Shown: positions 3,324 through 63,901, numbered from the stretch's first letter. The stretch is 64,000 bases of DNA from an uncultured Christensenella sp. (GCA_910578245.1 CAJTPC010000001.1:91603-155602), one strand, 5' to 3'. The notes: generated from the sequence alone by a model not told the origin. Made by a program: numbers and translations.

Positions 3324-4643
3324 CTAATTTTGGAAAGCTTGATAAATGGCGTTGATTGCTTTCTCGTAGTCACTCGTAGCAATACCCACTATGATATTCA
3401 TTTCGCTTGAACCTTGGTCTATCATTCTGATGTTGATTTTTTCTTTAGCGAGAGCGCCAATAAGCGTAGACGCGCTACCGGGCTTGAATGACATACCGTG
3501 ACCTACTGTCGCTACCAAAGATATTCCGCTCTTGATTTCGATATGGTCAGGATTGACTACTTTCTTTATTCTCTCGACTACTACGTCTTCTTTGCCTGCA
3601 AGTTCGCTGTCGGCAATGACGATGCTCATAGTATCGATACCCGTAGGCAAATGCTCGAAAGATATATTGTAATACTCAAGTACTGCAAGTACTTTTCGGA
3701 CAAAGCCTAGCTCGCTGTTCATCATAGATTTTTCAATGTATACGATACTATAGCCTTTCTTGCCTGCTATACCTGTGATAACTCTCTTGCCAAGTTCTTC
3801 TTCGCTAAGCTCCGCTACTATCATAGTGCCGTCTGCTGTCGGGCAGAAAGTATTGCGTATATTGATTGGTATTTTGCTTATTCTTACAGGGAAAATGGAT
3901 TCGGGATGAAGTACGTTGGCTCCCATATAAGCAAGTTCGCGAAGTTCTTTATACGAGAGCGTTTCGATTGGTTTTGGATTGCTGACTATGCGCGGATCTG
4001 CCGACATAAAACCGTTGACGTCCGTCCAATTCTCGTATAGGCTTGCGCCTACCGCTCTTGCTATTACCGCGCCCGATACGTCCGAACCGCCTCTGCTAAA
4101 CGTGCGAACAATACCTGCCTCGTCACCGCCGTAAAATCCCGGTACGACTGCTCTCTCTATGCCTGCAAGCGCGCTCTTAACTTTCTCATTGGTAAGCTCC
4201 GCTTCAAAGTCGCCGTTGTCGTTGAAGACCATAATGTCCTTCGCATCAATGAAAGCGTATCCCAATACTTTAGCCATAATTACCGCCGAAAGATACTCGC
4301 CTCTAGACGCGCAAAACTCTGCGGAATCGTATTTGTACATCTCTTCTTCGACTTTGTCAAGATAACTGTCTATATCAAGATCTATTGCCAGATCGTCAAC
4401 TATGACCTTGAATCTCTCTCTTATCTTTTCAAAAGTGTCTTTGCACTCGCCGTTGATTTGCAAGTCGTGATAACATGCGTACAACATATCGGTGACCTTA
4501 TGGTCTTGCGAAAATCTCTTGCCCGGAGCTGATACAACTACGTATCTGCGCTTTTTATCCTGCTTAATGATTTCGGCGACTTTTGTTATTGACTTGGCGT
4601 CTGCCATTGACGTACCGCCGAATTTTGCCACTGTGATTGACAT
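3324..4643 (-). CDS. lysC: Aspartate kinase
   Basis: N-terminal VAKFGGTSMAD amino-acid-kinase motif. 439 aa with a C-terminal ACT-like regulatory region (ISLVATVGHGM...IRMIDQGSSEMNIIVGI). Confidence 0.85.
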   Translation of the reverse strand: MSITVAKFGGTSMADAKSITKVAEIIKQDKKRRYVVVSAPGKRFSQDHKVTDMLYACYHDLQINGECKDTFEKIRERFKVIVDDLAIDLDIDSYLDKVEEEMYKYDSAEFCASRGEYLSAVIMAKVLGYAFIDAKDIMVFNDNGDFEAELTNEKVKSALAGIERAVVPGFYGGDEAGIVRTFSRGGSDVSGAVIARAVGASLYENWTDVNGFMSADPRIVSNPKPIETLSYKELRELAYMGANVLHPESIFPVRISKIPINIRNTFCPTADGTMIVAELSEEELGKRVITGIAGKKGYSIVYIEKSMMNSELGFVRKVLAVLEYYNISFEHLPTGIDTMSIVIADSELAGKEDVVVERIKKVVNPDHIEIKSGISLVATVGHGMSFKPGSASTLIGALAKEKINIRMIDQGSSEMNIIVGIATSDYEKAINAIYQAFQN

Positions 4644-4661
4644 ATCTTACCTCTTATAACC

Positions 4662-4731
4662 TTTTTCTTATCTTGTTATTTATTATCTCTTATTTTTTAT
4701 CTCTTATCTCTTATTTCTTATTTCTTATCTA
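4662..4731 (-). repeat. About nine tandem heptanucleotide units (TAAGARA on the minus strand) in the lysC 5' leader
   Basis: Minus-strand reading: TAAGAAA TAAGAAA TAAGAGA TAAGAGA TAAAAAA TAAGAGA TAATAAA TAACAAGA TAAGAAA. The plus strand here is almost free of G. Confidence 0.7.
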
Positions 4732-4798
4732 ATATTATATATTTTATATAACATATTTTACATTGCCTTAAAGTTTTTGGCAAGCAAAAAATCGGCAA

Positions 4799-6037
4799 TT
4801 ATAAAATTACTCTACACTCAAGATAATATCTCTTGTCCTCAGCGTGTCCCATTGAGAAGGACTTACGAGGCAACACTCCTCGTCTGACGACGTAGTCAAA
4901 AAGTCCGTCCTTTTCAAGGCAAGGCATAAAGACCGCAACCGCGTTTTTCTCCTTGGCTACGCTAAGCAAATGCTCATCGCCGTGTATATAATCTATTACC
5001 ATTTCCTTATGCGTCTTGTTGTATTCGTCCATAAGATGTTGGATATCGGCTATTGCATCGCTTGCATTGGCAGATACTCTCCAAGAGTATTCCTTGTCGC
5101 CGTAGACGACTTTGACATCGCTATTTCCGCCTAGTTTGGCAAGCTCGATTCCCATATATTCCACAAACTCTTCGCCTACGCCAAAGACAGCCCTATGTAT
5201 CGGCTCGAACTTCAAAGATTCATCGTGCAGATTTACAAGCTCGCAAAGCGCATATCTGGCAGGATGAGAATAAATAGCGTCACCGCTCAACGTCTTTTTG
5301 ATATTGTTCCAGCACTCTTTTGCAGTAGCAAGCGAGTGATTGCCATCGCCTACAGCAAAAAGTATCGGCTTATCGCTTCCGTACTTCTCTACCAAAGTTT
5401 CGCTATCCAAAAGATTGTGAATTGCATCAATCACAGGCTTGCAATTCTTTATCTTGTATCCTTTGATACTTCCTCCGCCCATGTTGAGATTAAAGTCGTA
5501 GGCTAGTTCCAACTCGTTGCGACGAGCATACAACGCCTCTATAATCTTATCCTTTTTATCGTCCATAAGCATCATTATATGCGGACTTTCAAGACATGCG
5601 CCCTTACGGACTTCTATTCTTGCCGGTAGCCTTTCGACTACTGTTTTTTCAGTGGCTTTTATAAGCGCGTTGTTTTGCTCGGTGTACTCATAATCTTCAA
5701 GGTCAATCGCTATGACAAGACCTAATCTCTTTTGATTGTCGGGAGTTGTTCTCTCTACAAGTATAAAACCTTCAAATTCCTCAAATATATCGCTATGCAA
5801 ATACTTATGCATATTGTCGTTGATAGCTTTTATCCTCTCTCGTTTATTCTCCCCTTCTAAGTAAACCTCGGGGAAAATTATTCTCAGCGTTGACGGCGCT
5901 TGCGCAACCAACTTATCTACTTGCTCCCAATATGACGGCTGGGACGTAAACTGGTCGCATGCTATGACGCTCCATTTGCTTTTGTCAACGTCGGCTTTGG
6001 GTAATAAGATTTTGGGGATTGTAATCGTACTTTTCAT
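4799..6037 (-). CDS. Conserved hypothetical protein, DUF1015-like (412 aa)
   Basis: The length and a VGDGNHSLATAK motif resemble the DGHHR motif of DUF1015 proteins as I recall it. The N-terminus differs from the DUF1015 consensus I remember, so confidence is low. Confidence 0.4.
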   Translation of the reverse strand: MKSTITIPKILLPKADVDKSKWSVIACDQFTSQPSYWEQVDKLVAQAPSTLRIIFPEVYLEGENKRERIKAINDNMHKYLHSDIFEEFEGFILVERTTPDNQKRLGLVIAIDLEDYEYTEQNNALIKATEKTVVERLPARIEVRKGACLESPHIMMLMDDKKDKIIEALYARRNELELAYDFNLNMGGGSIKGYKIKNCKPVIDAIHNLLDSETLVEKYGSDKPILFAVGDGNHSLATAKECWNNIKKTLSGDAIYSHPARYALCELVNLHDESLKFEPIHRAVFGVGEEFVEYMGIELAKLGGNSDVKVVYGDKEYSWRVSANASDAIADIQHLMDEYNKTHKEMVIDYIHGDEHLLSVAKEKNAVAVFMPCLEKDGLFDYVVRRGVLPRKSFSMGHAEDKRYYLECRVIL

Positions 6038-6060
6038 ATCTTTTCCTTTTTATTTTTTTG

Positions 6061-6306
6061 CAGAAACGCGGCTTAAGCGATGCGTATAAGATTGCGTAAG
6101 CGATTGACGCATGAACTTAAGCATTTTTCTTATTCAGTTCTTCCTAGAAACGAGGCTTAAGCGACGCGTATAAGATTGCGTAAGCGATTTTTGTGATAAG
6201 AAGGATACGTATTGTCGGCGTAGCAGAGCTACGTTGGCAATGCGTAGACGATCTTAGCGCATAAATCGGTAGCAAGATTGACGCATGAACTTAAGCAGAG
6301 TTTCTG
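6061..6306. repeat. Nested palindromic intergenic repeat: a short unit (6061-6123) and a long unit (6146-6306) with a ~100-nt insertion
   Basis: Both units share GAAACG(C/A)GGCTTAAGCGA(T/C)GCGTATAAGATTGCGTAAGCGAT...ATTGACGCATGAACTTAAGCA. The whole block starts with CAGAAAC and ends with GTTTCTG. Confidence 0.7.
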
Positions 6307-6368
6307 TTATTAAAAATGCCAGACTAATAAATAGTTTGGCATTAAGATTTACTTTGTTGCTATAATAC

Positions 6369-7256
6369 TTAGTTCTTCTTAGTGTCATGCTTTTTAGCAT
6401 GCTTATCGCGTTTCTTTACTACAGACTGAGTACTTATTCTATAAATGACCTTGATTTCTTCAAGCAACTTCTCAGGAGTCATATATCTCTTTATAGTACC
6501 GCCTTGTACTACGCTTATTATACCGCTCTCTTCGCTGACAACGATAGCAAATACATCGCTTTCCTCAGTAATACCTATTGCCGCTCTGTGGCGAGTTCCA
6601 AGTTCTTTTGCAAGCGTAACTTCTTGCGAAAGAGGTAAGAAACAACCTGCGGAGATAATCCTATCTCCAAGCACTACGACTGCTCCGTCGTGCAAAGGCC
6701 CTTTGGTGCTGAATATGCTCTCCAAAAGTCCGCTGGATATAGTTGCGTCCAATGCCGTACCGGTATCAAGAATATGAGGAGGTATTTCCGTCGGCGCAAT
6801 AATAATTAAAGCTCCTACGTCGTTCTTTGCCATATTCTGACAAGCCTTGACGATCTCAGTAGCGGAAATCAAAAGCTCTTCGTCCGACGTATTGTAGTTG
6901 TACTTGGTCTTTTGACGTCTTGCCATCTTACTCAAAAATATCTTGAGGTCTGATCTATAAACGTCCACTATAGCTACTATCCAGAAAAGATTGAAATATT
7001 TCAATACGTCAATAGCTATGCTAATCTTTTCTTCCGCCAAGTTGATGTTCAAAATATAAAGAGCAAGATAAATTATTGTGTATACGGATATAATTACCGC
7101 CAAACGGTAGCTGTTACGTCTTGCAAAAAATACAAACATCATTATGGCAACAGCCAATGTCACCAAAATGTTTACTATTATCCACGCTACGTCCGACTGG
7201 CTTACATTCGCAGCCAATAAAGAATTGAGCAACTTATCTTCCTCCTTTATTTTCAC
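6369..7256 (-). CDS. cdaA: Diadenylate cyclase CdaA (c-di-AMP synthase)
   Basis: Three N-terminal TM helices plus a DAC domain with motifs VGALIIIAP, GPLHDGAVVV and LGTRHRAAIGITEESDVFAIVVSEESG. Confidence 0.85.
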   Translation of the reverse strand: MKIKEEDKLLNSLLAANVSQSDVAWIIVNILVTLAVAIMMFVFFARRNSYRLAVIISVYTIIYLALYILNINLAEEKISIAIDVLKYFNLFWIVAIVDVYRSDLKIFLSKMARRQKTKYNYNTSDEELLISATEIVKACQNMAKNDVGALIIIAPTEIPPHILDTGTALDATISSGLLESIFSTKGPLHDGAVVVLGDRIISAGCFLPLSQEVTLAKELGTRHRAAIGITEESDVFAIVVSEESGIISVVQGGTIKRYMTPEKLLEEIKVIYRISTQSVVKKRDKHAKKHDTKKN

Positions 7257-13239: not shown

Positions 13240-13326
13240 GCCGAAGTGGTGGAATTGGCAGACGCGCCGGACTCAAAATCCGGTGATGGCGACATCGTGC
13301 GGGTTCAAGTCCCGCCTTCGGCACCA
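13240..13326 (+). tRNA. tRNA-Leu (anticodon CAA), class II with long variable arm, CCA encoded
   Basis: GCCGAAG acceptor pairs with CTTCGGC. Anticodon stem CCGGA/TCCGG with loop CTCAAAA. T-arm GGTTCAAGTCC. 87 nt. Confidence 0.9.
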
Positions 13327-13393: not shown

Positions 13394-13696
13394 CGCCAGA
13401 TCTATGTGACTTTTTTTCATAGTTGTGACATAGGGATACCGAATTTGTGACGCTTGCACAAGACGCTACTAACTTGCTCGCTATTCCGTTGCTATCGCTC
13501 CTTACAAATCCCTACCTCTAGCGCCACCTTAGCACACGCAAAAGAAACTCCAAAGTGCGTGTTATTTATATTTCAAGCACTTTGAGTATCAAAATCCTTT
13601 TTGTTCATTCAACTATCACCTGCAACAACACTTTTCCACTGCTCCAAAAAATCTATCGCCATTGTACAATAAGGATTTTCCTATATGTTATAATTT

Positions 13697-14272
13697 TTAA
13701 ATGAATTGCTTTATTAATTCTTGGCTTAAAGCCGACAATGACCAAAGTTGTCCCATAGCACTATACTCAAAATTTTGTGTAATAGTATTCCATTGCATAA
13801 ATCCAAGTAAATGCGTCATTTCTTCCCCATGATTTTTTCTTCGGATAATTTTTGAGACATCTTCATCTGATGAAAGAATCGCTGACAAACGGCTACTTGC
13901 TCCATTATCTATATTAATTAGAAGCCCAAATTTAGCATTAGAAACCACATTGTATCCAAGTAATTGCGACCATTCCGCTAATCCTACAGATTCACGCAAT
14001 TTAACTTCTAAAATTACTATTTCAAATTTTTCCCCATTTGTTATGATTCCAAATATATCTAAATTCAAAGGATACATATTCCTACTATATGTCTTCATAC
14101 ATTGACACTTTTCGGGATGCTCCTCAATTAGCTCTTTGATTTTTGTAGTTAACTCTCCACTCTTCCAATATATCTCGATATCTTTAATGCCTTTAGCCGC
14201 AAAATTACTTTTAAGTTGAGCCTCAATAAATCTCGTAATCTCAGGATAATGTGCTATTTCATTTTTCTTCAT
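13697..14272 (-). CDS. PD-(D/E)xK-type nuclease candidate (191 aa), last gene of the methyltransferase operon
   Basis: The motif LNLDIFGIITNGEKFEIVILEVKL fits D...(D/E)xK. It overlaps the upstream gene by 4 nt. Confidence 0.55.
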   Translation of the reverse strand: MKKNEIAHYPEITRFIEAQLKSNFAAKGIKDIEIYWKSGELTTKIKELIEEHPEKCQCMKTYSRNMYPLNLDIFGIITNGEKFEIVILEVKLRESVGLAEWSQLLGYNVVSNAKFGLLINIDNGASSRLSAILSSDEDVSKIIRRKNHGEEMTHLLGFMQWNTITQNFEYSAMGQLWSLSALSQELIKQFI

Positions 14273-15663
14273 TTAAGATCATCCTCTATTATTTGTCTAA
14301 CTTTTAATTTATAAGTGTTGTTATCATCATAAGAAATAAGGTTTTTATAAACATTTGGATTATTAGGGCCTATCAAAACCGAATATCCATTCATAGAAAA
14401 ATACATAGGTGTCAAAATATCTGGTAAATTGCACTTAACTTTTGCTTGAGGATTGCGCTCTAAATACGAGATTATGATTTGCTCCTCCGAGCCCTTTGGT
14501 CTTAATCCATTAAGTTGACCTGTATCGGCAGCAATTAAAAATGCTATTGCCCGAATTATTTTTGATACTGGATAACCTGAATTAATTCCATTGCCCCACA
14601 TTAGGTGAGAGTCATTCTTACTATTTAGGATTGTTGAAATAGTAAGTTCCTCTTGTCTATAGGTACGGTTTTTAAATAATGGATCGGCATTGATTATTGA
14701 TTCGATATCATTATCCGTTCCTTTCACCATAATAGGGAAAGGATTTATATAATTTTCGGCTTTACACAAGATCTTTCTTACTTCGGAGTATGGAGCATGC
14801 TCACAACCTAAAACTGCGCAAACATGCTTATTATGTATATAATGTCCGCCTCTAATGTCAGTTGGTAATAATGAACTGTTTTCATCACTATGAACACAAG
14901 ACATTGATGGGCTTTTTATCTCTCGATCTTCACAAGGTATGGCTACATTAATTTGGCTTTCCAACTCAATATTCTGTTTTATAGAGGTGGCTTTAGATGC
15001 AAAAGCGAAAGCCCCAAATTTGTCATATTGATCCAAATACACTCTCAATTTAAAGCCCTTTTTCCATCTTTTATCATAAGGATTCATTCCACAATGAAAA
15101 TTAGGATGATTCCATAGAATCTGGTCTGGATAACATTTAATACTATGAAGCAACTTACATAATGCACAAACAAAGTGATACTCAAACCCATTAATCTCAA
15201 ATGAAATCATTTGCTTATCATCAGTAAATCTTCGATGCGATTGTTTAGTACTGCCAATTGTATCAGCAAGTCCGGCAATAAACCGCCGTTTTAAATTATC
15301 ATCAACGAGTGCCGGGACAATATTATTTATATTTGCAGTTTTTCTAATCTCCCCCTCACATACTATATCGTAAGATTCTAATTCAGCCCGCAATTCAGTT
15401 AAATCGCCTTCACATAATATATTCCACTCGCCACTAGTAACTGTATCATATGAAATTGATAGTCCATAAATTGCACGAAAATAAGGACTTACAACTTTCA
15501 TAACATCTTTTGATATTTGCCCTGCACGCAGAGGATTTGACTCATAAGACCCCCACTGTTTATACGGCAGTCTAATACGGAATACATCTTCTGCATCTCC
15601 CCAAATTCCACCACCTATTATCAATCCTAAAAGATACGCTCTATCTGAATCCATATTGATCAT
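14269..15663 (-). CDS. LAGLIDADG-like two-motif protein with an extra C-terminal domain (464 aa)
   Basis: AYLLGLIIGGGI lies at residues 9-20 and RFIAGLADTIGS at residues 127-138. The ~117-aa spacing fits single-chain LAGLIDADG enzymes. The canonical acidic residues are not in the expected positions. Coupled to both neighbours by 4-nt overlaps. Confidence 0.5.
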   Translation of the reverse strand: MINMDSDRAYLLGLIIGGGIWGDAEDVFRIRLPYKQWGSYESNPLRAGQISKDVMKVVSPYFRAIYGLSISYDTVTSGEWNILCEGDLTELRAELESYDIVCEGEIRKTANINNIVPALVDDNLKRRFIAGLADTIGSTKQSHRRFTDDKQMISFEINGFEYHFVCALCKLLHSIKCYPDQILWNHPNFHCGMNPYDKRWKKGFKLRVYLDQYDKFGAFAFASKATSIKQNIELESQINVAIPCEDREIKSPSMSCVHSDENSSLLPTDIRGGHYIHNKHVCAVLGCEHAPYSEVRKILCKAENYINPFPIMVKGTDNDIESIINADPLFKNRTYRQEELTISTILNSKNDSHLMWGNGINSGYPVSKIIRAIAFLIAADTGQLNGLRPKGSEEQIIISYLERNPQAKVKCNLPDILTPMYFSMNGYSVLIGPNNPNVYKNLISYDDNNTYKLKVRQIIEDDLK

Positions 15664-16697
15664 TTCTCCTCAAAAACTTGTTGCATGATCTCTGTGGCCA
15701 TCACATTAGCAAGCCTAGGCGGAACAGCGTTTCCTATAACCTTATACATAGCTGTAATGTTTTTTAATCCATCATCGTTAAATATGAAATCATCGGGAAA
15801 TGTTTGAATCCTTGCAACCTCTCTTATCGTAAAACGTCTATTTTCAGTTGGATGTATAATTCCACAGTTTTCGGGTTGCGCAGAAGCCGTTATTGTTCCT
15901 GCTATCTCTTCTCTCGAAAAACGTCTATAGAATTTAGGTGAATGATATTTCTTCATATCATCTCTAATTCTCTTAAATCTTGGTGCAAGATGTTCGTATG
16001 GCACATCTTTCCATGAACCACCTTCTGGAATATACTCTATCATTTCCAAAGCTTGAGGTGAAAGTGGCCAATGCACCTGATTTGGGATATCTTCTTCTAT
16101 ATTCAAGATATATTTTAATGCAAGTCCGTTCCTAGATTGTTTCTTAGGAAATCTAAATACCCTATTCAAATCTTTTCTAATGCCAACGAATAGAACCCTT
16201 TGCCGATTTTGAGGAACTCCATAATCCGCTGCATTAACCAGTTGATATTCTACATTATAACCGATATCATTTATTGTCGACAAGTCTTCTTTTATTACCA
16301 AAGCTAAATCACGTCCATCAATATATTTGGTTGACAATAATCCCTTTACATTTTCAAAAACAATTACTTTTGGCATCTTTTCACCAATTATACGTAAACA
16401 TTCTTTATATAACATTCCTCTTGAATCATGAACGCCTTTACGCTTTCCTGCGTTTGAAAATGGCTGACATGGAAACCCTGCTGTCAATATATCACAGTCA
16501 GGAATATCATTTTCGCTAACAGTCATGATATCTCTACCATCAATATCGCCTAAATTTAATTTATGTATTGCTTGTGCATCCTTGTCAAAGTCATTAGCCC
16601 ATATAATATCAAAACCTGCTTGTCTAAAACCAAGGTCTAATCCACCGCAACCAGAAAAAAGCGATACCATCTTAGGTTTGTTTCCATTAACTTTCAT
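15660..16697 (-). CDS. DNA (cytosine-5)-methyltransferase
   Basis: Motifs I FSGCGGLDLGF, IV GFPCQPFS, VI ENVKGL, VIII QNRQRVLFVG, X GNAVPPRLA. Confidence 0.9.
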   Translation of the reverse strand: MKVNGNKPKMVSLFSGCGGLDLGFRQAGFDIIWANDFDKDAQAIHKLNLGDIDGRDIMTVSENDIPDCDILTAGFPCQPFSNAGKRKGVHDSRGMLYKECLRIIGEKMPKVIVFENVKGLLSTKYIDGRDLALVIKEDLSTINDIGYNVEYQLVNAADYGVPQNRQRVLFVGIRKDLNRVFRFPKKQSRNGLALKYILNIEEDIPNQVHWPLSPQALEMIEYIPEGGSWKDVPYEHLAPRFKRIRDDMKKYHSPKFYRRFSREEIAGTITASAQPENCGIIHPTENRRFTIREVARIQTFPDDFIFNDDGLKNITAMYKVIGNAVPPRLANVMATEIMQQVFEEK

Positions 16698-17021
16698 TTT
16701 CTCTTTCCTTATATTTTGCGAAATATATTCACATATTAATATTTTGTAACTCTACAAGTATAAATCATATATTTGTCACTAAATTACTTTTTGGTTATGT
16801 AACCAAAGACAATATATTATTAATATTATTTTATCATTAATATAATTAAAAGTCAAAAATATAGGAACCAATAAATATCTGTTTTTAAAAAGTTATCTAT
16901 TAAAAACTAAAACTATGCATTTTTTACTTCCATACTGTGTAAATATTTAGACATAAAATTCAAGTCCCGACTTCGGCTATGCCTTAAAAAAATCCTTTTT
17001 GTTCATCACGCACAATATTAG

Positions 17022-47500: not shown

Positions 47501-47587
47501 TGGTGCGGATAACAAGATTTGAACTTGCACGGCCTTTCGGCCATAAGAACCTGAATCTTACGCGTCTGCCAATTCCGCCATATCCGC
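47501..47587 (-). tRNA. tRNA-Leu (anticodon CAG), class II, CCA encoded
   Basis: The reverse complement is GCGGATATGGCGGAATTGGCAGACGCGTAAGATTCAGGTTCTTATGGCCGAAAGGCCGTGCAAGTTCAAATCTTGTTATCCGCACCA. Anticodon loop TTCAGGT. A hairpin plus T-run follows at 47465-47496 on the minus strand. Confidence 0.9.
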
Positions 47588-48795: not shown

Positions 48796-48965
48796 AACAA
48801 CCTCCTAAATCTTAATATTATTAGTATTGCCCAAAGATCACTGTATATTCATGTTAATAATACTGAACGCGTTCAAAATAATTGGCTGATTTTAGCCAAT
48901 TATTTTACTAAAAATAGCAAATTTAGCACAAAATTGCGCTAAATAGTACAGTTTGAATTAATAGT

Positions 48966-48994
48966 AAATGTTTCACAAATATCGTGAAACATTT
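48966..48994. promoter_or_regulatory. Split parS-like palindrome (half-sites separated by 7 nt)
   Basis: AAATGTTTCAC-aaatatc-GTGAAACATTT, with perfect 11-nt arms. Confidence 0.35.
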
Positions 48995-49522
48995 ACCGAA
49001 AAACCAGTGAGAACGAAGATTTTAGATAAATTTGTTCTTGTTTTTACTTAATTATTAGGTATATATTAGAATATATTTGAGTAAAATATGCATATTTAAG
49101 AACATATAATGCTAAAAATTGTTTCACAGGGAACATAACGGAGAAAAATGGACAAACTGCCGAATTCAACTGTGAAACGGCTCAATTTTCCTAATTTTTT
49201 CACAAATTTACACATTTTTGTATTTTAGTAAGACAACACGAATATATATGCCTATGTTACAACTTATGCAATATACAATTTGCAACAAATGCCAAGCAAT
49301 ATTTTATACACAAATCAACTAACACAATACAATTATCTCGTTATATTCACATGACCAGCCGTTTAACCGATATTTATGAAAGCGTTATTTTTAATTTTCT
49401 GTAATAGCAATTATCAACCGGCGTATTGCAAAAGTACTATTTCTTCTCAATGCATTCACAGACTACTTAGAATAGAATCTAAACGGTTTTATTTATGCTT
49501 ATAACTGACGTATAATTTATAA

Positions 49523-49538
49523 TGTTGCACGTGAAACA
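49523..49538. promoter_or_regulatory. parS: parS site (ParB/Spo0J binding site)
   Basis: TGTTGCACGTGAAACA is an exact match to the Bacillus-type consensus TGTTNCACGTGAAACA. Confidence 0.8.
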
Positions 49539-50204
49539 TTATATTTTTAGTTCTTTATTCCCATTGGCAATTTTATTGATTCGCACCAAACATCCCTATC
49601 CGATCCCAATTAATACATTAAAATTAATTTAACATTATATCAGCTTCGATACTTATTTGCTACAACCCAAGATACGGTAGCAATACAAACATTAAAGCCA
49701 CCTTAAGCCATCTAGACCGTCAGGGAAGTCATAACATGGGAAGCTATAACATAATAGCAAACCGCCGCGCAACGATAATATGTTGTGCGACAGACACAAC
49801 GCAACCGCATTTATCGGTAATTTTATAATTAAACAACAAGACAATATAATACGTTTTCATAACGCGAACATATTATCAAGTTATTTGAAAGTAAGGATAT
49901 CTTAAATGCCTAAACATATTATGAAAGACCAGAAAGTATGCAAACGCCTGAGAATCAACTGTTTTGATGCGTTTATTGTATTTATCTAAAGCAGAGCATT
50001 GCGCGCAAGAGCAACGCAAAATAGCGAGCAAAGCCTAGCTTAGCATTATTATTAGCGACAATATGGCTCGCGAACTCCACAACCACCCATTATTACGTTA
50101 ATTTGCAATTTAATCAACCTATCGCACCGGTTTATAATAATGACACCCTATGCGTGGTAACAAATTGATAAATCAACTATATTGAACTTCACCCGTATAT
50201 CATA

Positions 50205-50220
50205 CGTTTCACGTGAAAAT
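50205..50220. promoter_or_regulatory. Degenerate parS-like site
   Basis: CGTTTCACGTGAAAAT has a perfect 12-bp core TTTCACGTGAAA and three mismatches in the outer positions. Confidence 0.4.
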
Positions 50221-51197
50221 GATTTCTAAAACATCCGTTGCAACATCTTATTGCTATTAATCTTAAGTTTGCCACATCTACTGCATTGAAGACAAGCTAA
50301 TCATTCGGTTAGACAAATTTATTCTTAAATCGCAACCAAATGCAATACCTACCGCATTGTTACATTTCCCATTTCCGATTGAGCTACTTATCAACACATA
50401 TATTAAAATTTATTAGAGTATGTCGGCAAACATCTATAGGCAAAGCTAAATTAGACGTGGCATCATGAATTGCAATTTATACTTAAGAACTTGTAAACAT
50501 AATTTATGCCGGAAGCGCTTAACCCGAACAATTATTATGACATTTTCACGCGCAACCTTTGCTCAAAGCCAATAATACGTCTGCAGGCAGTCATTTACTT
50601 GATAAGAATAAAATCAGCGGTGTATACCATTAAAGCCGATTCGATTGGATATTCATCCCCGGACAATCGCTATACTATTTATTGTAGCGTATTGGAACCT
50701 TGATTACTAATATTATAATTAGCCATTCGACAATTTATAGAATCTTTTTAGATTATTTATCCATGAAGCATTAAATTCATTGACTGATATCTCGCTACTG
50801 TGTAATTATACCAAACGTAGGAGTCACATAATCCAATATGACAAAGCATTTAGACTTTATTAACATTGTCGGAATGGCGCGCGCATTTTTTATTATTTTC
50901 TCGACTTATTATTGAAGTTGCCAATATAAATTAGAACGCGAAATCATAAATTAACTTCGAATCACAAAAGAAATAACTTGACTCTACAATTATTACGTTG
51001 TATTCATTTCATTTTATTAATTGCGTTGCGAGGTTATCTTGTATATTCAAAGCTATATTTCTATTTCAAATCGCTTTGACTTCTGTAAAAATCAAATTAA
51101 ATTACGCCATCTATAAATTATTCACTCCTTATTAATTACTTCAAATTACGAGATAGAGTAACTACGCAATTATAAAAACCAATGGACATAAACGCAA

Positions 51198-51213
51198 TGT
51201 TACACGTGAAACA
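51198..51213. promoter_or_regulatory. parS: parS site (ParB/Spo0J binding site)
   Basis: TGTTACACGTGAAACA is an exact match to TGTTNCACGTGAAACA. Confidence 0.8.
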
Positions 51214-51922
51214 TGGTATTTTTTTGAGTTTTGCTATTTTAGCACTTTTGACACATAATACTGCATAAAGAAGTCGGCATTACGATCTGATTGGTTAGTG
51301 TATTGCAAAAAACCATCTAGTAGCAACATTTTTAAGTCTAGTTATGCTCATTAGTGATAATTATCTCTAACAAAAAAAATTATTTATTGCCTTATATTCA
51401 AAAGAATAGTAACTCATACTATTAATCGAATAGTAAACACCTTGCTTTTATTGGGCAAATCTGTCAAGCGTTGCCATTGGGCATAACAAAAAATATAAGT
51501 AGGCGAACCAACACGCTCTCATTAGACCGTATTATTTCTTTTTATGCAATTCTCTAATAATCACGCCATTTTACAGCCAGAGTATTGACATTATATTTTT
51601 AGGGTACCATTATTTCAATGACTGCATGTATAACGCTTTTGCAATCTAAAATGATATGATTTTTTAGTTGCGAATAGTTCCTTGTGTAATTTTGCATATT
51701 CTGTAGTACAATATAGCAGAATTTTGGCTATACTTTGTCTGTACTTCTATATTTCGGCTGTTTTTTGATTATTATTTATAATAATCAAAGTGGATTTTCT
51801 AGTGATTTTCTCATTGAATAATGATATAAAATACCTATTTTTACAACAAGACATGAGTATCCTACTTTAACTATGCGCTATATGAATGCGGGCAGGTACA
51901 AAATAAAGTAGTGGCAATTTAC

Positions 51923-51951
51923 TTGACAGTTACTTGCTATTTATTTATAAT
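51923..51951 (+). promoter_or_regulatory. Consensus sigma-A promoter of the rpmH operon
   Basis: TTGACA (51923-51928), 17-nt spacer, TATAAT (51946-51951). Confidence 0.75.
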
Positions 51952-51995
51952 AATAAAGCGTAATTATTTTTTTATATAAAAAGGAGACAATAGAT

Positions 51996-52130
51996 ATGAA
52001 ACAGACGTATCAACCCAAGAAAAGACAAAGATCAAAGGTTCACGGCTTCCGTGAAAGAATGCGTTCAAAGAGCGGTAGAAACGTAATTAAGAGACGTCGC
52101 AATAAGGGCAGAAAGCAACTCACCGCTTAA
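51996..52130 (+). CDS. rpmH: 50S ribosomal protein L34
   Basis: Not in the ORF track (44 aa). AAGGAGA RBS. Translation: [44 protein letters not shown]. Confidence 0.95.
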
Positions 52131-52136
52131 TAGAGT

Positions 52137-52544
52137 ATGCAAAAAAAGTACAGGCTGAAAAACGGCAGAGTATTTAGATATCTGCGCTTAAAAGGGCAAA
52201 GCAACGCCAACAAAATGCTTGTACTTGTCCACGCCCCTTCCAAGTTCCCTTTGAAGGTGGGTTTTATCGTAAGCAAAAAAGTTGATAACAGAGCAGTTGT
52301 TCGCAACAAGGTCAGACGACGTCTAAGAGAAGCGTTTAGGGCAATGATTCCGTATCTTAAGGACAACGTAAATTATATTGTCATCGCAAGAGAAGTATGC
52401 GGCGAAGCGAATTTTGAGGAACTGACAAACAATCTTGCGCATTTGATAATCAAAAGCGACTTATTTGCAAGAAAAATCGACGATGACGTAGTTGAAAGAT
52501 TAAAACTCAAACAGAGCGTATTGGAAAAAGCAAAGTTTGATTGA
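52137..52544 (+). CDS. rnpA: Ribonuclease P protein component
   Basis: Immediately follows rpmH. GFIVSKKVDNRAVVRNKVRRRLREAFR is the RNR motif region. Confidence 0.9.
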   Translation: MQKKYRLKNGRVFRYLRLKGQSNANKMLVLVHAPSKFPLKVGFIVSKKVDNRAVVRNKVRRRLREAFRAMIPYLKDNVNYIVIAREVCGEANFEELTNNLAHLIIKSDLFARKIDDDVVERLKLKQSVLEKAKFD

Positions 52545-52560
52545 GGCGTACGGACGATAA

Positions 52561-52800
52561 ATGAAAAGCGGAAATTTTTTTATTCAATATTATAAGCAAT
52601 TTATCAATCCCGCAGTGGGTGGCAGGTGCAAACATATTCCGTCGTGTTCGGCATATATGGGACAAGCCATAGCCAAAAAAGGATATATCAAAGGCTCTGC
52701 AATGGGCGTAGCTAGGATATTGAGATGCAATCCCTTTTCAAAAGGCGGATATGATCCCGTAAAGGATAATCTTAAAGGAAACGCAAAATGGCTATTATGA
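52561..52800 (+). CDS. yidD: Membrane protein insertion efficiency factor YidD
   Basis: CKHIPSCSAY and the ILRCNPFSKGGYDPV motif. Confidence 0.9.
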   Translation: MKSGNFFIQYYKQFINPAVGGRCKHIPSCSAYMGQAIAKKGYIKGSAMGVARILRCNPFSKGGYDPVKDNLKGNAKWLL

Positions 52801-53972
52801 ATTTTAGTTTGCTTGCTGCGGTTAGTTCTATTTGGAAACCCATCATCAGCTTGCTACATTGGATGAACAGCGGTATCGGCAACTTCGGTTGGACGGTAGT
52901 GGTGTTTTCTATTATGTTGCGCTTATTGCTTTTGCCGTTAGACGTATGGCAGAAGATGATTATGCGCAAACAAAAAGCTAAAATGGACGCAATACGTCCT
53001 CAGCTTGAAAAAATCCAAAAACAATACGCCAATAGACCCGACCTTCTAAGGCAAAAGCAATACGAACTTCAGAAGGGCTCTATGAATATATTTACTTCTT
53101 GCTTGCCAATGATTTTCACGCTTGTGATATTCTACGTGGTATTCCAAGGATTTAGGCAGTATATCGTGCAATACAATCAAGACAAAGTAACCGAACTGTA
53201 CAATATATATCTGCAATTCTTCAAAGACAGTGACAACGTGGAGCAGATTTTGAAAGTCTACAATGAACAACTCGTTGCGGCGGGAAAAACCGCAGTCGAT
53301 ACGTATTTGAGTGGCGATGGATTCATCGAAGGCTTTTTCCCGTCATACGATTATATACGTCAAGCGGGACTTATCGACCAACTTAACGCATCTTTGGTAG
53401 ACAAATATCCTCTTGAAAGTTGGCTTTGGGTCAAAAACGTGTTTATGTCGGATACTTGGGCAAACGTAATACCTAGCCTTGACAACTTCACGTCAACGAA
53501 GTTGGGCGGTATAGGCGCAACCGTTCCGGACATTGCCGGCGTATCGTACGATCAACTTATGAGTCCTATAATCGACAGTTATAACAAGAAAAGTTTTTGG
53601 AATATGAGTAAATGGAACGGTTATTTTATACTTCCGATACTCTCTATTGCGACTAGCTTTTTGTCAACAACGTTGCAACAAAAAATGCAACCTGTACAAG
53701 TTACGGGCGATCAAGCTCAGCAAAAGCAACAACGCATAATGAACAAAATTATGACGTATCTTATGCCACTCATACTCGGCTTCTTTGCGATAATGTACAG
53801 CGCGGCATTTGCAATATACTACTTCGTCAGCAACTTTATGACGATGGCAACTTCTCTCACGTTCAATCTTATTGTAAAGAATATGGACAAGAAAAAAGCA
53901 AATCAGCCTATTATTATTCAAAAAAACACCGACAACAATAACGCTAAAAAGTCTAATAAGACAAAAAGATAA
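52788..53972 (+). CDS. yidC: YidC/Oxa1-family membrane insertase (SpoIIIJ-like)
   Basis: GWTVVVFSIMLRLLLLPL and the MRKQKAKMDAIRPQLEKIQKQY motif. Multi-TM with a basic C-terminal tail. Confidence 0.85.
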   Translation: MAIMNFSLLAAVSSIWKPIISLLHWMNSGIGNFGWTVVVFSIMLRLLLLPLDVWQKMIMRKQKAKMDAIRPQLEKIQKQYANRPDLLRQKQYELQKGSMNIFTSCLPMIFTLVIFYVVFQGFRQYIVQYNQDKVTELYNIYLQFFKDSDNVEQILKVYNEQLVAAGKTAVDTYLSGDGFIEGFFPSYDYIRQAGLIDQLNASLVDKYPLESWLWVKNVFMSDTWANVIPSLDNFTSTKLGGIGATVPDIAGVSYDQLMSPIIDSYNKKSFWNMSKWNGYFILPILSIATSFLSTTLQQKMQPVQVTGDQAQQKQQRIMNKIMTYLMPLILGFFAIMYSAAFAIYYFVSNFMTMATSLTFNLIVKNMDKKKANQPIIIQKNTDNNNAKKSNKTKR

Positions 53973-63801: not shown

Positions 63802-63901
63802 TGTTGATAAGTTATTTAATAGACCTATAATCAATAAAAATTGAGAATTTTATGTTTATAAGTATGTTGATAAATAATTTTAGTTTTCCACATTGTCCAC
63901 A
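63802..63901. promoter_or_regulatory. DnaA-box cluster upstream of dnaN (oriC segment in the presumed dnaA-dnaN spacer)
   Basis: TGTTGATAA occurs at 63802-63810 and 63865-63873, TTTTCCACA at 63884-63892 and TTGTCCACA at 63893-63901. Each differs by one mismatch from TTATCCACA or its complement. A very AT-rich stretch follows to the window end. Confidence 0.7.

Follow-up and report, generated by a model that had tools for sequence, protein, structure and literature searches.

Results

Organization of the M-L-S cassette

The subject of this study is a three-gene cassette within a 64,000-nucleotide stretch of DNA from an uncultured Christensenella sp. (GCA_910578245.1 CAJTPC010000001.1:91603-155602), which is referred to as the window. 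The cassette consists of head-to-tail open reading frames (ORFs) on the minus strand, designated M, L, and S in this order (Table 1). M encodes a cytosine-C5 DNA methyltransferase, S encodes a predicted PD-(D/E)xK nuclease, and L, the gene between them, encodes a protein whose N-terminal part is modeled with the fold of a LAGLIDADG homing endonuclease. As set out below, we somewhat favor the interpretation that the three genes constitute a Type II-like restriction-modification (RM) system in which L would recognize DNA and S would cleave it.

A preliminary description of this region had the three genes coupled by 4-nt overlaps. This holds for the L/S junction, which is a true ATGA overlap with a Shine-Dalgarno-like ribosome-binding site, GAGGATGA, located 5' of it. 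At the M/L junction, a 4-nt overlap exists only if translation of L starts from its first ATG (position 15663). A second ATG (position 15654) is located 9 nt downstream of the first and gives a protein of 461 amino acids (aa). The ribosome-binding site GAGGAG lies 2 nt 5' of the first ATG and 11 nt 5' of the second one, which is also the start used by L homologues and by the 100% identical database protein P0001 (461 aa). Because both the spacing of GAGGAG and the starts of the homologues favor the second ATG, the M/L junction is probably a 5-nt gap. Regardless of which start is used, M, L, and S are tightly (translationally) coupled.

Table 1. Features of the M-L-S cassette and of the islet that contains it (positions in the window)
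Feature	Position	Strand	Description
M	16697..15660	minus	345 aa, C5-cytosine DNA methyltransferase (Dcm type)
L	15663..14269	minus	464 aa, putative large subunit; probable real start 15654
S	14272..13697	minus	191 aa, putative small subunit, predicted PD-(D/E)xK nuclease
L half-domain 1 (residues ~5-100)	15364..15651	minus	helix 6-18, motif AYLLGLIIGGG, canonical acidic position G19
L half-domain 2 (residues ~120-235)	14959..15306	minus	helix 122-136, motif FIAGLADTIGS, canonical acidic position I136
L Cys/His cluster (residues 244-289)	14797..14934	minus	C244, C256, H258, H274, H277, H280, C282, C287, H289
L C-terminal alpha/beta domain (residues 305-464)	14272..14751	minus	pLDDT 90-98, no recognized relative
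S catalytic signature	13952..14059	minus	D72, E89-V-K91, Q103-x-x-x-Y107; invariant in the relatives aligned
Candidate promoter upstream of M	16828..16856	minus	TTGACT, 17 nt, TG-TAAAAT; 10/12 consensus match, extended -10; best in region
tRNA-Leu(CAA) at islet edge	13240..13326	plus	ARAGORN; Rfam RF00005, 57 bits
Direct repeat, copy 1 (3' end of tRNA-Leu gene)	13304..13322	plus	TTCAAGTCCCGCCTTCGGC
Direct repeat, copy 2 (partial tRNA 3' end, far side of cassette)	16959..16977	plus	18/19 match to TTCAAGTCCCGCCTTCGGC
Second direct repeat	13591..13608 and 16989-17006	plus	AAAATCCTTTTTGTTCAT; exact, 18/18

M is a full-length Dcm-type methyltransferase

M matched PF00145 over model positions 2 to 323 of 324 (E = 8e-83), TIGR00675 (dcm; E = 7e-76), and the PADLOC model MTase_II (E = 5e-102), in agreement with its earlier description as a canonical Dcm-type methyltransferase. 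Its catalytic motifs are complete and it is encoded beside one or more nuclease genes, as a Type II RM system requires. The nearest PDB sequences, M.HaeIII and M.HhaI, could be aligned with M only over the catalytic half (residues 9 to 193), so that its target-recognition domain could not be assigned. No source gave a specificity name to any of the 120 closest relatives of M.

L is modeled as a LAGLIDADG protein that has lost the canonical catalytic residues

The AlphaFold model of L, which was built on 59 homologues, reached a predicted local distance difference test (pLDDT) score of 91.4 and a predicted template modeling (pTM) score of 0.88. When the model was compared with the PDB using Foldseek, the top 35 matches were all LAGLIDADG or intein endonucleases or WhiA (best E = 1.1e-5). 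They included the TliVMA and PI-SceI intein endonucleases, I-Tsp061I, I-DmoI, I-AniI, I-SceI, I-OnuI, and the N-terminal domain of WhiA (3hyj, E = 1e-4). The alignments covered approximately 220 to 250 columns on the N-terminal half of L, with target-normalized TM scores of 0.56 to 0.62 to I-DmoI and I-Tsp061I. The search of viral structures in BFVD returned 79 matches at E ≤ 1e-3 (best E = 2.9e-8), and the 50 that were listed were without exception LAGLIDADG/DOD endonucleases or proteins of the type that hosts inteins (terminases, polymerases, and ribonucleotide reductases). The model and both structural databases therefore agree with the LAGLIDADG assignment that had been proposed from the motifs of L, and place its N-terminal ~235 residues in the single-chain homing-endonuclease fold. 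The motifs themselves, AYLLGLIIGGGI (residues 9 to 20), RFIAGLADTIGS (residues 127 to 138), and GGHYIHNKHVCAVLGCEH (residues 272 to 289), were all found as originally given.

The only Pfam match of L was to Hom_end and was below threshold (E = 0.13, 12.9 bits versus a cutoff of 21.1). Scanning 48 divergent relatives of L recovered no significant LAGLIDADG Pfam family; in two of the 48, Hom_end reached E = 0.076.

To locate the positions at which a catalytic Asp or Glu would be expected, we anchored the two motifs on the G-S that ends each of them. In 48 relatives with identities down to 22%, position 19 was occupied by G, A, W, or P and position 136 by R, I, V, K, L, T, or A. Since neither position was ever acidic, the canonical LAGLIDADG active sites are gone throughout the family, as they are in WhiA (PMC3384342), which extends to the relatives what had been stated for L itself.

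Twenty-seven columns of the L family alignment are conserved at a level of at least 90%. Eighteen of them are located in half-domain 2, compared with four in half-domain 1 (of 96 columns) and two in the last 160 residues; by this measure, half-domain 2 is the best-conserved part of L. Its conserved residues include S138, R144, S154, E156, D180, Q181, N185, H186, P187, W200, K202, G203, K205, and R207. Several conserved polar residues are spaced two apart on predicted strands, for example S154/E156 and K205/R207, a pattern that would be consistent with the face of a beta-sheet that reads DNA.

A search of the family alignment for a conserved PD-(D/E)xK or acidic motif elsewhere in L found none. 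Likewise, no PD-(D/E)xK, HNH, GIY-YIG, or phospholipase D (PLD) nuclease was detected in L by Pfam, NCBIfam, PADLOC, PDB sequence search, or Foldseek, and neither Pfam nor NCBIfam gave a match to a helix-turn-helix (HTH), regulator, or WhiA domain.

The half-domains are followed by a Cys/His cluster, which is invariant in the close clade. Among divergent members, only H258 is conserved at a level of at least 90%, and several members have no cysteines. The model of this region is mostly coil with short helices. As the cluster is not conserved family-wide, a structural role in metal binding is more likely for it than a catalytic one. The possibility of an HNH or His-Me site was rejected, because the ligands are not kept in divergent members and there is no beta-beta-alpha structure.

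The remaining part of L is an alpha/beta domain in which only R388 and G391 are conserved at a level of at least 90% across the family. With the model of the whole protein as the query, all of the non-LAGLIDADG PDB matches listed had E ≥ 0.39, and the BFVD matches listed included no non-LAGLIDADG fold for this part. A nuclease was sought in the C-terminal domain, and no conserved acidic triad or cluster was found. A candidate 'PD415' motif was rejected, since relatives show D, E, or N at this position and no (D/E)xK accompanies it.

S is a predicted PD-(D/E)xK nuclease

The AlphaFold model of S (pLDDT 94.2) has an alpha-beta-beta-beta-alpha-beta core. The D...EVK motif claimed for this protein was found as D72...E89-V-K91, with D72 on the second strand (residues 70 to 78) and E89 and K91 on the third (residues 83 to 91). 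Helix 98-111 carries Q103xxxY107. These five residues, together with E5, do not vary between the window protein and 15 relatives, which include the most divergent loci of the surveys described below (L061 to L073), and the signature is also invariant in an alignment of 40 sequences. The Q-x-x-x-Y element resembles motif IV of RecB/Cas4-type nucleases.

S matched PDDEXK_3 with E = 0.009 and 16.8 bits, below the Pfam cutoff of 22. The same profile was matched weakly by 37 of the 40 family members, with a best E value of 2.4e-4 that was likewise below the cutoff. Foldseek gave no significant match, but its weak structural neighbors were enriched for restriction and defense nucleases, namely PaqCI, BamHI, EndoMS, MunI, FokI, Can2, Cap4, and Dna2 (E = 0.097 to 0.4 for the first five). 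The topology of the core, the invariant D/E-x-K, and the QxxxY bear out the earlier assignment, and S is predicted to be an active PD-(D/E)xK nuclease from a family without catalogued relatives. Past the nuclease core, S extends into additional C-terminal strands and a helix.

M, L, and S form an obligate triad in diverse hosts

Neither L nor S was assigned to a characterized family above threshold in Pfam, NCBIfam (June 2026), PADLOC, PHROGs, or the PDB, REBASE being outside this scope. Neither protein thus falls into a characterized restriction-enzyme family represented in Pfam, NCBIfam, PADLOC, and the PDB. Of the outcomes that the preliminary description had named as refuting, neither a fold of L other than LAGLIDADG nor its membership in such a family was obtained. 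PADLOC gave no match for either protein; PHROGs gave none for L and one at chance level for S (phrog_22598, E = 0.028). Searches against PDB chains, with single sequences as well as family profiles, returned only chance-level matches such as IL-8, MMS21, and integrin.

Homologues of L are nevertheless numerous. In a 90%-identity collection there are 555, all of approximately 460 aa and all named 'hypothetical'. An exhaustive profile search yielded 248 clusters at 50% identity, and the full-length ones listed share one architecture. This search revealed no relatives of L with other domain partners, only the architecture of ~430 to 486 aa and fragments of it.

The genomic neighborhood was surveyed from each of the three genes (surveyed loci are numbered with the prefix L). 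For the L-centered survey, one genome per species was scanned, which gave 71 loci; together with 3 obtained earlier, the total was 74. Each of the 74 has M upstream of L, and 69 have S downstream. Of the five loci without S, four have a contig or an L gene that is cut short; in the fifth (L071), no S ORF was detected in the 248 bp that follow L. In a metagenome scan centered on S, all 71 loci that extend far enough have L immediately upstream of S, and look-ups from two abundant relatives of M, one of them from Phascolarctobacterium faecium, again returned M-L-S. Across the three surveys, which amount to approximately 160 loci, the gene order was kept wherever the integrity of contig and genes permits checking. 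M-L-S is an obligate triad.

The hosts belong to Bacillota, Bacteroidota, Alpha-, Gamma-, and Deltaproteobacteria, Melainabacteria, Coriobacteriia, and Akkermansiaceae (Verrucomicrobia), and further include Brachyspira (spirochaetes), Anaerolineae, candidate phyla radiation (CPR) bacteria, and three methanogen lineages. The L-family proteins of the surveyed hosts are 33 to 86% identical to the window protein. Candidate cultured carriers are Phascolarctobacterium faecium, Parabacteroides gordonii, Merdibacter massiliensis Marseille-P3254, Parablautia muri D42-62, and Syntrophomonas palmitatica JCM 14374. The cassette has spread horizontally across many bacterial and archaeal phyla.

Associated genes, decay, and fusion

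In many cassettes, an HTH_17 domain (PF12728) is fused to the N terminus of M, resulting in methylases of approximately 419 to 431 aa and up to 455 aa (e.g., L033:3729-4988, L028:3629-4996, and L161:4001-5296). HTH_17 is absent from the M of the window, and where it occurs it presumably acts as a built-in regulator. A gene for a Vsr-like (PF03852-type) mismatch endonuclease is present on the cassette strand in 16 of 156 loci; in about ten of them it directly follows S, giving the order M-L-S-Vsr. Examples are L003:7983-8417, L015:3904-4356, L027:4553-4984, and L044:6972-7412, and there is none in the window. The idea that S substitutes for Vsr was rejected, as canonical Vsr genes co-occur with S.

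Some cassettes are decayed. L is frameshifted or interrupted next to the M gene in L060, L067, L069, and L073, in the last of which it is apparently split by an insertion of ~3 kb. In L077 and L109, M is broken along with L. Two remnants (L149 and L079) have kept S and only a fragment of L, with no methylase.

Eight contigs (L134, L136, L137, L140, L141, L143, L144, and L146; e.g., L134:816-3317) have M and L fused in frame (833 aa). The M::L fusion comprises M at positions 6 to 344, a linker of 25 residues, and L at positions 371 to 830, and is followed by a separate S gene. This fusion ties L functionally to M.

Insertion site and features elsewhere in the window

Cassettes were found beside integrases, between copies of insertion sequences (ISs), on viral contigs, and near tRNA genes. 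In 7 of 53 loci other than the window (L011, L019, L021, L048, L061, L062, and L066; cassette at about positions 3950 to 6970 in each), the distance to a tRNA gene was no more than approximately 750 bp. By a rough estimate, ~3% of random positions are this close to a tRNA gene. The adjoining gene in L019 is tRNA-Leu(CAA), as in the window, whereas the cassette of L061 lies between tRNA-Gln and tRNA-Met.

The cassette of the window occupies a low-GC islet of ~3.65 kb (GC content, 0.335 to 0.346, versus 0.37 to 0.42 in the flanks). Between the direct repeats derived from tRNA-Leu, the islet contains only M, L, and S, with no integrase inside it. Partial duplication of a tRNA gene is the usual footprint of integrase-mediated insertion. 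One copy of the second direct repeat, AAAATCCTTTTTGTTCAT, lies within the islet, ~270 bp from its edge, and the other just beyond the opposite edge. As for transcription signals, the best promoter candidate of the region is located upstream of M (Table 1). Promoter-like sites in the region were no more frequent than in shuffled sequences, and neither the promoter scan nor the terminator scan was above chance.

A few observations concern the rest of the window. A second tRNA gene (47504-47587, minus strand) is located within a low-GC segment at 43 to 51 kb. The AT-rich ~3.2 kb at 48900-52130 (GC content, 0.30 to 0.32) contain no ORF of at least 70 aa and no Rfam match. They lie directly upstream of rnpA-yidD-yidC (52137-53972, plus strand), at the minimum of the cumulative GC skew, and may be close to a replication origin. 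At the end of the window, four DnaA-box-like 9-mers with one mismatch to TTATCCACA occur within 100 bp (63802-63901). Window-wide there are 32 such matches, compared with 17 +/- 5 expected.

Discussion

Proposed function of the cassette

An intact methylase, an obligate nuclease-bearing pair of genes next to it, horizontal transfer, regulators, Vsr, and decay of the genes other than the methylase are most simply read together as the marks of an RM module. Within such a module, a division of labor in which L recognizes DNA and S cuts it, as raised in the preliminary description, is favored because S has the only predicted active site, and L has a DNA-binding fold without chemistry of its own. 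We consider the chances to be slightly better than even that M-L-S is a Type II-like restriction system organized in this way.

In the mechanism we propose, the cassette would be a mobile unit whose endonuclease is split into two obligate subunits, L and S. M would methylate cytosine at C5 in a short target and thereby protect host DNA. L would serve as the DNA-recognition and scaffold subunit; having lost both metal-binding acidic residues, it would not be capable of canonical cutting. The sequence would be read mainly by the conserved beta-sheet of half-domain 2, while the zinc-type cluster and the orphan C-terminal domain might stabilize the protein and dock S. S would have little specificity of its own and would depend on L for its placement and activation at unmethylated sites. 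Since there is one predicted active site per L-S pair, double-strand cleavage would need either two S protomers (as L2S2 or by transient dimerization of S, as in FokI) or sequential nicking. We infer the restriction activity, the division of labor, the contact between L and S, and their stoichiometry from the predicted structures and the conservation of the genes.

Several points weigh against this interpretation. A LAGLIDADG saddle normally reads 18 to 22 bp, compared with the 4 to 6 bp typical of a monospecific Dcm enzyme of 345 aa, and the suggestion that bases are read by half-domain 2 only is drawn from its conservation. The LAGLIDADG domain of WhiA, so far the one dead protein of this kind that is known, may have no part in DNA binding at all (PMC3384342). 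S has no significant match by structure or sequence, its best Foldseek nuclease having E = 0.097 and PDDEXK_3 remaining below the cutoff, and its assignment as a nuclease derives from topology and invariant residues. At 191 aa, it would also be big enough for a self-sufficient Type IIP enzyme. The M::L fusion, finally, is limited to what is probably a single lineage, because all eight contigs come from one sample series.

The size of S leads to the first alternative, in which S alone would be a small homodimeric Type IIP endonuclease and L an accessory DNA-binding protein, such as a WhiA-like regulator, a modulator of S, or an establishment factor. PvuII, BglII, and BamHI are of similar size, the strands and helix of S beyond its core would fit such an enzyme, and BamHI and MunI are among its weak structural neighbors. 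However, in the three gene-centered surveys L was never missing from an intact cassette, and it is translationally coupled between the other two genes. Loci with an intact S beside a broken L appear to support independence of S, but they could equally be dead systems. As a regulator, L would be unusual: it is a well-conserved protein of 464 aa, whereas known controller proteins are HTH proteins of ~80 to 100 aa, it matches no HTH or other regulator domain, and many cassettes already have an HTH regulator fused to M. Even though WhiA sets a precedent for a dead LAGLIDADG domain in a regulator (PMC3384342), we regard this explanation as unlikely.

A second alternative is that L and S each cut one strand, like the subunits of BtsI, BsrDI, and BspD6I, with L using a noncanonical site formed, for example, by D134, E156, D180, H186, and K202 of half-domain 2 or by H258 with the Cys/His cluster. 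Two strands would then no longer have to be cut by a single active site, and the sizes of 464 and 191 aa resemble those of the BsrDI subunits (56 and 25 kDa; PMC3017599). L does keep invariant or nearly invariant D134, E156, D180, H186, H258, K202, and K205, yet the spacing of its conserved polar residues two apart on strands is that expected of a DNA-reading beta-sheet face. Both canonical LAGLIDADG metal ligands are missing from L family-wide, no PD-(D/E)xK, HNH, GIY-YIG, or PLD family or motif was detected in it, and the Cys/His cluster has been lost in part of the family. Cleavage by both proteins accordingly strikes us as quite improbable.

That L-S is a methylase-associated module without a role in restriction, engaged in 5-methylcytosine repair or nicking or acting as a homing-like endonuclease that spreads the cassette, is very doubtful: LAGLIDADG ancestry suggests mobile-element biology, and tRNA genes are found no more than ~750 bp from the cassette in 7 of the 53 other loci scanned as well as in the window, where the cassette has short direct repeats at its sides and no integrase inside, but a separate canonical Vsr gene already fills the repair role in 16 loci, insertion sites vary between genomes (various tRNAs, IS flanked, or integrase adjacent) and so do not fit single-target homing, the partial tRNA duplication is what an integrase usually leaves behind, and strict pairing with one co-evolving methylase lineage is to be expected of a toxic nuclease that needs protection.

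Recognition by L and cleavage by S remain the functions that we prefer for the two proteins. Beyond this, we see an even chance that M-L-S is the first RM system with an endonuclease built on the LAGLIDADG fold, in which a dead meganuclease scaffold would read a short site and recruit a separate, nonspecific PD-(D/E)xK cutter via a previously unseen C-terminal domain. The M::L fusion suggests a bolder variant, in which the methylase, although of the C5 type, would in addition be guided or gated by L, a logic like that of Type I systems; we consider it a long shot.

Significance

The folds known among characterized restriction endonucleases are PD-(D/E)xK, HNH, GIY-YIG, PLD, and half-pipe. In a review from 2012, homing endonucleases of the HNH, GIY-YIG, and PD-(D/E)xK classes are linked to restriction enzymes, and WhiA is the only host relative named for the LAGLIDADG class (PMC3384342). 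We found no description of a LAGLIDADG-fold component of an RM system in the literature searched, a scope that leaves aside any earlier unpublished annotation in REBASE. If our interpretation is correct, a widespread RM family with a LAGLIDADG-derived subunit would fill this gap among the folds and represent a second, independent domestication of a dead meganuclease. It would also add a sixth structural class of restriction-enzyme architecture and form a direct evolutionary bridge between homing endonucleases and RM systems. M-L-S is a new architecture for a putative restriction system and is of interest to specialists in restriction enzymes and homing endonucleases alike.

Few engineerable DNA readers have been studied as well as LAGLIDADG scaffolds, and a natural pairing of such a reader, specific for a short site, with a detachable cutter could be developed into new reagents for restriction or nicking and serve as a template for modular nucleases. 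The C-terminal domain of L is unannotated and has no structural relative among the PDB and BFVD matches listed. Of two cassette methylases, one is listed in 366 blocks of a public assembly collection and the other in 199, the contigs coming from human- and mouse-gut samples among others, and hosts of the cassette include Phascolarctobacterium, Parabacteroides, and Lachnospiraceae. The cassette may therefore present a real obstacle to gene transfer and to the genetic manipulation of these hosts.

Comparison with known systems

In mode of action, M-L-S comes nearest to the heterodimeric Type IIS/IIT enzymes and to the modular logic of FokI, and in structure L comes nearest to single-chain LAGLIDADG enzymes of the I-DmoI type and to WhiA. 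The heterodimeric Type IIS/IIT enzymes ('Class III'; BtsI, BsrDI, and BstNBI/BspD6I) are likewise encoded by adjacent genes for a large subunit and a PD-(D/E)xK small subunit of ~20 to 25 kDa, and their small subunit is inactive without the large one (PMC3017599). In M-L-S, too, S directly follows L, in all loci with room. The large subunits of that class have their own PD-(D/E)xK site and nick alone, whereas L has no detectable nuclease motif. BspD6I, the member with solved structures, has a FokI-like DNA-binding domain (PMC3017599), in contrast to the LAGLIDADG fold in L, and no match of L or S to this class was found by sequence or structure. The class recognizes asymmetric sites. It is paired with different methylases.

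The logic that we propose is the same as in the Type IIS enzymes FokI and PaqCI, in which a recognition module is combined with a nonspecific PD-(D/E)xK module that pairs to cut both strands. M-L-S differs from them in having the modules on separate polypeptides and in the fold used for recognition, and the matches of S to these enzymes are nonsignificant (E = 0.097 and 0.42). The spacing of 17 residues between D72 and E89 of S is presumably the same as that between D450 and D467 of FokI.

WhiA/DUF199 shares with L the single-chain LAGLIDADG fold, the replacement of both catalytic acidic residues, and recruitment to a host function (PMC3384342). WhiA, however, has a C-terminal HTH and is a chromosomal regulator of sporulation and cell division in Gram-positive bacteria. 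L instead carries the Cys/His cluster and the orphan alpha/beta domain, with no Pfam match to HTH or WhiA, and its gene invariably has a methylase gene on one side and a nuclease gene on the other, on mobile DNA and in many phyla.

With the single-chain LAGLIDADG endonucleases (I-DmoI, I-Tsp061I, I-SceI, I-AniI, and the endonuclease domain of PI-SceI), L has in common the fold and the two interface helices with conserved glycines. Its first motif (LLGLIIGGG) was noted in the preliminary description as being very close to that of I-DmoI; in this study, I-DmoI is a structural match, with target-normalized TM scores of 0.56 to 0.60. Compared with the active enzymes, L has no catalytic Asp or Glu, is not matched above threshold by any profile of the family, and is longer by ~220 C-terminal residues. 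L lies in neither an intron nor an intein and does not stand free beside a homing site of its own; it is always the middle gene of an M-L-S operon.

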